Assembly (NCBI RefSeq): GCF_041248615.1
Contig: NZ_CP158426.1
Length of the DNA: 64,000 bases
Source of the DNA: Escherichia coli
GTDB lineage: Bacteria > Pseudomonadota > Gammaproteobacteria > Enterobacterales > Enterobacteriaceae
Reading direction: 5' to 3' (one strand)
Below, one piece after another: positions 35,635-36,507 of this stretch. Each line of letters begins with the position of its first letter. The first letter of the stretch is position 1. Under the pieces are notes generated by a model. It was not told the DNA's origin. It made no database searches and worked only from the letters and a program-made list of their open reading frames with translations. Made by a program: the position numbers and the translations under genes.

Positions 35635-36507
35635 ATGACCATCTATACCTTATCTCACGGGCCGCTAAAGCTGGACGTTTCTGACCGGGGCGGCGTCATC
35701 GAAGGCTTCTGGCGTGACGCGACGCCGCTCTTACGTCCCGGTAAAAAAAGCGGTGTGGCAACCGATGCCTCTTGTTTTCCGCTGGTGCCGTTTGCAAACC
35801 GGGTGAGCGGCAATCGTTTTGTCTGGCAGGGGCGTGAGTATCAACTGCAACCGAATGTTGAGTGGGATGCGCACTATCTGCACGGCGACGGCTGACTGGG
35901 GCAGTGGCAATGTGTCTCGCGCAGCGAAGATAGCTTGTGTCTGGTGTATGAACATCGCAGCGGTGTTTATCACTATCGGGTAAGTCAGGCGTTTCATTTA
36001 ACGGCAGATACGCTGACGGTGACGCTCTCTGTCACCAATCAAGGGGCAGAGACGCTGCCATTTGGTACCGGCTGGCATCCTTATTTTCCGTTGTCACCAC
36101 AAACGCGGATTCAGGCGCAGGCGAGCGGTTACTGGCTGGAGCGGGAGCAGTGGCTGGCGGGTGAGTTTTGCGAGCAGCTACCGCAAGAGCTGGATTTCAA
36201 CCAGCTCGCGCCGTTGCCACACCAGTGGGTGAACAATGGCTTTGCCGGATGGAATGGTCAGGCCCGCATCGAGCAGCCGCAGGAGGGTTATGCCATCATC
36301 ATGGAAACGACGCCACCTGCACCATGTTATTCCATCTTTGTTTCCGACCCGGCGTTTGATAAAGGATATGCGTTTGATTTCTTCTGTCTGGAACCGATGA
36401 GCCATGCGCCGGATGACCATCATCGCCCGGAAGGGGGTGATCTCATTGCGCTTGCACCAGGGGAATCAACAACTTCAGAGGTGTCGTTGCGGGTTGCGTT
36501 ACTGTAA
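35635..36507 (+). pseudogene. yphB: aldose-1-epimerase-family gene interrupted by an in-frame TGA at 35893-35895
   Basis: Two track ORFs (35635..35895 and 35935..36507) lie in the same frame, separated only by TGA in ...HYLHGDG*LGQWQCV... A TGG (Trp) codon is expected here, consistent with a single G-to-A nonsense change. Confidence 0.6.

Follow-up and report, generated by a model that had tools for sequence, protein, structure and literature searches.

The question raised by this locus is whether the in-frame TGA that interrupts yphB, an aldose-1-epimerase-like gene of the E. coli yph cluster, is a true inherited mutation, what it would mean for the enzyme, and whether it is connected with the insertion sequence (IS) that lies just beyond the gene. 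The first-pass annotation of this DNA had taken the stop and the IS together as signs that the yph sugar-utilisation cluster is decaying in this lineage. The window (the whole stretch of DNA analysed here, 64,000 nucleotides) is identical base for base to positions 1344001-1408000 of NZ_LT599825.1, the chromosome of E. coli isolate NRZ14408, which is described as carbapenem- and colistin-resistant in the title of its genome paper (PMC5365728). The gene proves to be an ordinary lineage-specific nonsense pseudogene, affecting a non-essential accessory function in sugar metabolism, and RefSeq already records its internal stop. We consider it highly probable that the pseudogene arose by one spontaneous G:C>A:T transition at 35895, that its loss was near-neutral, and that the neighbouring IS1397 is unrelated; no evidence contradicting the nonsense-pseudogene reading was found.

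The TGA codon of yphB and its inheritance

The yphB frame opens with ATG at 35635, runs for 290 codons on the + strand and closes with TAA at 36505-36507. Its codon 87 is an in-frame TGA, which splits it into two ORFs in the same frame, the second of them starting with TTG. The features of the interrupted gene are as follows.

35635-36507, + strand: yphB pseudogene, aldose-1-epimerase family, 290 codons with one internal stop (Pfam PF01263; RefSeq 'pseudo, internal stop')
35893-35895, + strand: premature TGA at codon 87, ancestral codon TGG (Trp87), from allele comparison
35635-35895, + strand: ORF of the truncated 86-aa YphB product, covering profile positions 2-89 of 299, with LHG (His83) retained and the rest of the fold missing
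35935-36507, + strand: downstream 190-aa remnant ORF from TTG, holding GWHPYF (His148) and CLEPM (Glu253), with no convincing Shine-Dalgarno sequence

The split into 86-aa and 190-aa ORFs claimed at first pass is confirmed, the peptide context HYLHGDG*LGQWQCV matching exactly, and the naming of the gene as yphB is upheld by the match to Pfam PF01263 (E = 1.7e-51), which, with Trp supplied at codon 87, scores 175.9 bits (cut-off 27) and takes in residues 3-285. A Trp-to-stop change from TGG had also been proposed, and alignment of yphB to K-12 and other E. coli agrees with it. Codon 87 is TGG (Trp) in all six comparison genomes (K-12, Ecol_316, MEI003, JNE25-003, strain 1190 and 377323_2f), the stop thus lying one nucleotide from the sense codon of close orthologues. 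Differences from the window yphB amount to 41 of 873 nucleotides in K-12, 4 in Ecol_316, 6 in MEI003, 9 in strain 1190, 17 in JNE25-003 and 86 in 377323_2f; the nearest intact allele is that of Ecol_316, in which three bases besides 35895 differ. The presence of TGG both in K-12 and in the closest intact alleles gives the direction of the change, which on this sequence comparison is a G>A transition at 35895 converting TGG to TGA. The base after the premature TGA is C.

A single base separates yphB from its close relatives, and the same record contains a homopolymer-length frameshift in yfhR (A5 vs A6), possibly a long-read artefact, both of which would fit an intact gene whose TGA was introduced into the NRZ14408 record by faulty sequencing or assembly. 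However, the yphB change is a substitution at a site with no homopolymer, and the same TGA is present in isolate 362, a complete genome from a Madrid hospital (NZ_OW967178.1), in five further NCBI/ENA assemblies and in one metagenome contig. With 9 SNPs and 1 indel between them in the 64-kb window, NRZ14408 and isolate 362 are related but distinct isolates from different sequencing groups; the yphB of both carries the RefSeq flag 'pseudo, internal stop' (R2K29_RS06630 and LQ124_RS06050, respectively). In all, TGA stands at codon 87 in 7/7 independent loci, including the contig from a human-gut metagenome, with the same IS junction in each. The exact 86-aa peptide is recorded in 436 contigs from NCBI, JGI, ENA and Logan assemblies (e.g. 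E. coli KTE78), a count that may hold one isolate from several sources. The TGA is inherited across independent isolates, and its occurrence in independent assemblies therefore excludes the base-call error considered at first pass, with no need for raw reads; to an intact yphB misread in this one record we assign a negligible probability.

Several other features were noted in the course of these comparisons. The yfhR gene (46515-47368, - strand) is annotated by RefSeq as frameshifted in NRZ14408, the indel lying at 47268 (A5, vs A6 in isolate 362). This may be another true pseudogene, or the assembly may have miscounted the homopolymer; isolate 362 shares the yphB stop but lacks this frameshift. 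Between timP and sseA (57867-58913, + strand) lies a gene for a 348-aa 'integrase core domain-containing protein' (transposase-like), and the same protein accession occupies that position in isolate 362. One member of the lineage, GCA_900448585.1, has yphC, the IS1397 transposase and hcaD further split (1927-2989, 4697-5298 and 5875-6261 of the extracted locus) and runs out of register with the window; this looks like an indel-rich long-read assembly rather than further gene decay.

The stop is no chance feature but a specific mutation of a conserved gene, yphB being near-universal (present at ≥80% coverage in 5,379 of 5,426 complete E. coli genomes) and under purifying selection (pN/pS 0.14 against K-12). 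The frequency of the TGA allele was surveyed with exact 61-mers. The 61-mer centred on the TGA was matched by 2 of the 1,074 genomes carrying this allele type, and a 61-mer made by placing the G>A change on the K-12-type allele found no exact match in 4,191 genomes, leading to rejection of an independent origin of the TGA on a K-12-like background. TGA carriers accordingly number 2 among about 5,265 complete E. coli genomes, both of one lineage, in a survey that is blind to TGA alleles with an extra SNP nearby and leaves about 124 yphB-bearing genomes outside both queries.

Consequence of the stop for YphB

YphB is a single-domain protein, with the solved structure 3NRE covering residues 1-288 as one continuous domain, and the truncation point is read from the sequence as lying early within it. 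The 86-aa fragment corresponds to profile positions 2-89 of the 299-position PF01263 domain, so that the stop is predicted to remove about 70% of the aldose-1-epimerase, including two conserved active-site motifs. Alignment to solved aldose 1-epimerase chains (4BZE/4BZF) places the conserved elements at LHG (His83), G-W-H (His148) and E-P (Glu253). Among these three, LHG alone precedes the stop; codon 87 comes before both GWHPYF (146-151) and CLEPM (251-255), leaving no complete domain. In the galactose mutarotase (GalM) literature, by Beebe and Frey and by Thoden and Holden, the second His and the Glu are said to form the acid/base pair, a role that we take to carry over to the corresponding residues of YphB. 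Because the GWHPYF (His148) and CLEPM (Glu253) motifs are missing, the 86-aa fragment should be inactive, with full or nearly full loss of activity. Its ORF being interrupted, yphB is therefore filed as a PF01263 pseudogene and not as a functional member of the family. A literature search returned no biochemical data for YphB, matches to 'yphB' being mostly unrelated 'Y PHB' yield terms, and the protein serves in PMC5902678 as a structural reference only, without functional data.

The truncation would matter less if the UGA were recoded, as selenocysteine or by efficient programmed readthrough, with full-length YphB remaining the main product. The stop is UGA followed by C, which Poole, Brown and Tate reportedly described in 1995 as the weakest termination context in E. 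coli. A search of 35500-38100 up to E = 10 gave no SECIS element or other Rfam family near the stop (two matches at E = 3-7, to a microRNA model and a snoRNA model, lie inside the IS and are noise), and the RNA fold of the 60 nt after the UGA is no better than that of shuffled sequence (z = -0.51). The gene also lacks the marks of a selenoprotein gene, with no SECIS hairpin 3' of the UGA and with orthologues that carry Trp, not Sec or Cys; the ancestral codon was TGG, neither TGA nor TGC. Selenocysteine and a structured recoding signal were rejected on the missing Rfam match and the unremarkable fold. UGA is the leakiest E. coli stop, read by near-cognate Trp-tRNA(Trp) in competition with RF2 at about 2-4% in K-12 reporters (PMC10570021), which at this codon would restore the ancestral Trp. 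However, background readthrough of a few percent differs from programmed recoding. In addition, RF2 is more active in non-K-12 strains (Ala246) than in K-12, which would lower readthrough further. Recoding that keeps full-length YphB as the main product is, in our judgment, extremely improbable.

Because misreading of a leaky UGA would put the ancestral Trp back, some wild-type YphB may still be produced at a low level, and the allele need not be a strict null. We think it very unlikely that the allele is a hypomorph, in which a few percent of translation yields authentic wild-type YphB. If it were one, the residual activity (varying in K-12 with cAMP and temperature) could explain the intact yph operon of the lineage.

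A working enzyme might also be imagined to reassemble from the 86-aa and 190-aa pieces if both were translated, since each piece alone still scores against PF01263 and in-frame restart codons, TTG at 35935 and GTG at 35944, follow the stop. However, neither restart codon has a convincing Shine-Dalgarno sequence before it, residues 87-100 would be lost, and the fold forms one unbroken domain (PF01263 over 3-285; 3NRE over 1-288). The downstream piece in NRZ14408 moreover carries F233S, consistent with no constraint. Reinitiation to give a useful C-terminal fragment was rejected on the missing Shine-Dalgarno sequence and the omitted residues, and a functional split enzyme has next to no probability. 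Termination at codon 87 with loss of the enzyme is the reading retained below.

IS1397 and the state of the yph cluster

The first-pass annotation had placed an IS about 25 bp past the yphB stop, and this is accurate, the element starting at 36534, 26 bp after the TAA. It is IS1397, recognized by its inverted repeats at 36534 and 37965, a GTTC target duplication, its length of 1,432 bp and the 'programmed frameshift' in the RefSeq annotation. The features on either side of the interrupted gene are as follows.

27578-35623, + strand: yphG, yphF, yphE, yphD and yphC, upstream of yphB in the same orientation, without internal stops and intact in RefSeq
36518-36533, no strand: REP left arm GCCGGATAAGGCG (36518-36530) and loop bases, with the left GTTC duplication at 36530-36533 (K-12 empty-site comparison)
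36534-37965, + strand: IS1397 (IS3 family), 1,432 bp, with terminal inverted repeats TGAACTGCACCCCAAA and TGAACTGAACCCCAAA
36585-37933, + strand: IS1397 transposase, made by programmed frameshift (RefSeq 'IS3-like element IS1397 family transposase')
37966-37983, no strand: right GTTC duplication (37966-37969) and REP right arm CGCCGCATCCGGC (37971-37983) (K-12 empty-site comparison)
37991-38413, - strand: yphA (DoxX family), convergent with yphB, intact (ORFs, RefSeq)

The empty site in K-12 is a 47-bp spacer with one REP palindrome, GCCGGATAAGGCG-TTCA-CGCCGCATCCGGC, and in the window IS1397 splits the loop, lying inside the central part of the palindrome. Specific insertion of IS1397 into REP/BIME palindromic units has been shown experimentally, as stated in PMC1525189 with reference to Clement et al. 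(1999) and Wilde et al. (2001, 2003). Forward-orientation IS1397 is found at the yphB-yphA junction in 33 complete genomes. Comparison of seven genomes distinguishes at least four insertions at this REP, in both orientations and all close to the palindrome loop, a few bases away at most.

GTTC duplication, forward: window, isolate 362 and MEI003
TCAC duplication, forward: JNE25-003 and strain 1190
TTAC duplication, forward, in a different BIME context: 377323_2f (NZ_CP039404.1; about 2700-4150 of the extracted locus)
GTT duplication, reverse: Ecol_316

The repeated targeting of one REP by IS1397 is a new observation. In 377323_2f, hcaT directly follows yphA (4170-5312 of the extracted locus), and hcaR and hcaEFCBD (phenylpropionate), which lie between yphA and hcaT in K-12 and NRZ14408, are apparently absent.

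All compared IS1397 carriers outside the TGA lineage have an intact yphB, and MEI003 has the identical GTTC insertion together with TGG at codon 87. IS1397 therefore either preceded the stop or arose independently, and in both cases the two events are unlinked. IS1397 and the stop are independent, and IS1397 interrupts neither yphB nor yphA; the insertion is probably the earlier of the two.

Decay of the yph cluster, as proposed at first pass from the stop and the IS, does not follow from either. The genes yphC to yphG are free of internal stops and intact in RefSeq, and the lengths of the yphG (1,093 aa), yphF (327), yphE (503) and yphD (332) products all equal those in K-12. The IS is intergenic, REP-targeted and recurrent beside intact yphB, and with at least four insertions in intact-yphB genomes it was rejected as part of any decay. 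The yphC gene (34529-35623, + strand) is annotated with 364 aa here (ATG at 34529) and 353 in K-12, where the annotated start differs and the sequence length is the same.

A different kind of signal comes from substitutions private to NRZ14408, four of which fall in the yph operon: YphF R103C (31262), YphE V8I (31983), a silent change at YphB P195 (36219 G>A) and YphB F233S (36332 T>C). All four are transitions, derived in NRZ14408 relative to isolate 362 and outgroups, and 3/4 are nonsynonymous. The changes at 36219 and 36332 are missing from the six other lineage assemblies checked, whose loci do not extend to 31262 and 31983. Over the 16.9 kb surrounding yphB, isolate 362 and NRZ14408 differ nowhere but in the operon, which makes up 14% of the window and holds 4 of its 9 SNPs (binomial P = 0.027; post hoc, n = 4). 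After the stop codon itself there are two events only, one silent and one nonsynonymous (F233S). As a sign of operon-wide relaxation this clustering is a weak signal, suggestive at most.

Fate of the allele and comparison with known systems

The origin and fate of the allele can be proposed as follows. A spontaneous G:C>A:T transition at 35895 would have changed Trp87 (TGG) to TGA, at which RF2 would terminate translation to give an 86-residue N-terminal fragment of the mutarotase of about 290 residues; devoid of GWHPYF and CLEPM, this fragment would have lost all or nearly all enzyme activity. Standing at the end of the co-oriented yphGFEDCB run, with the convergent yphA beyond it, yphB has no downstream gene that the stop could affect through polarity. 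Mutarotation also occurs spontaneously, and E. coli has other mutarotases. For these reasons, together with the absence of a downstream gene to be affected, loss of yphB was probably close to neutral, and the allele would have reached fixation in the clone that carries it, a lineage now sampled widely. The IS1397 insertion would be a separate and probably earlier REP-targeted intergenic event, with no causal link to the stop.

Positive selection for the loss of yphB (adaptive gene loss) would equally leave the allele fixed in its lineage, for which hundreds of samples exist, and might account for the four further private operon substitutions in NRZ14408, three of them nonsynonymous. However, there is one origin among the approximately 5,265 complete genomes and no convergent recurrence, clonal fixation is what hitch-hiking predicts, and the private SNPs are only weakly enriched in the operon (P = 0.027 from four events, post hoc). 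We regard adaptive loss as unlikely, and near-neutral loss remains the preferred account.

In practical terms, the RefSeq 'internal stop' flag on NRZ14408 yphB marks a true inherited mutation and no assembly error, and the clonal lineage can be recognized simply by having both the TGA and the GTTC-flanked IS1397 junction. Where an IS is REP-targeted and intergenic, its presence beside a broken gene does not speak for operon decay. Beyond annotation the importance of the finding is little.

The RefSeq entries R2K29_RS06630 and LQ124_RS06050 ('aldose 1-epimerase, internal stop') describe the same feature at the same coordinates with no difference, and are silent on the ancestral codon and on the spread of the allele. 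K-12 YphB (b2544, putative aldose 1-epimerase, PDB 3NRE) is the orthologue, its gene likewise flanked by yphC and yphA, with the same 290 codons and Pfam domain and 41/873 nucleotide differences; with Trp read at codon 87, the window product is nearly identical to it. Codon 87 of K-12 yphB is TGG and its ORF is unbroken, whereas that of the window is interrupted, and the K-12 yphB-yphA REP, in a spacer of 47 bp, has no IS1397. GalM (galactose mutarotase), the characterised member of the aldose-1-epimerase family, shares the Pfam family with YphB, and the conserved LHG, G-x-H and EP motifs of YphB line up with those of 4BZE/4BZF; YphB differs in being shorter (290 aa) and, in the window, truncated, and is only distantly related to the nearest other solved mutarotase (E = 3e-6). 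The IS1397 of the window agrees with the element as described in PMC1525189 in its length of 1,432 bp, its imperfect inverted repeats beginning TGAAC and its two-ORF frameshift transposase, as well as in the 3-4 bp target duplication and insertion into the REP loop, with no difference in kind from the properties given in that description.
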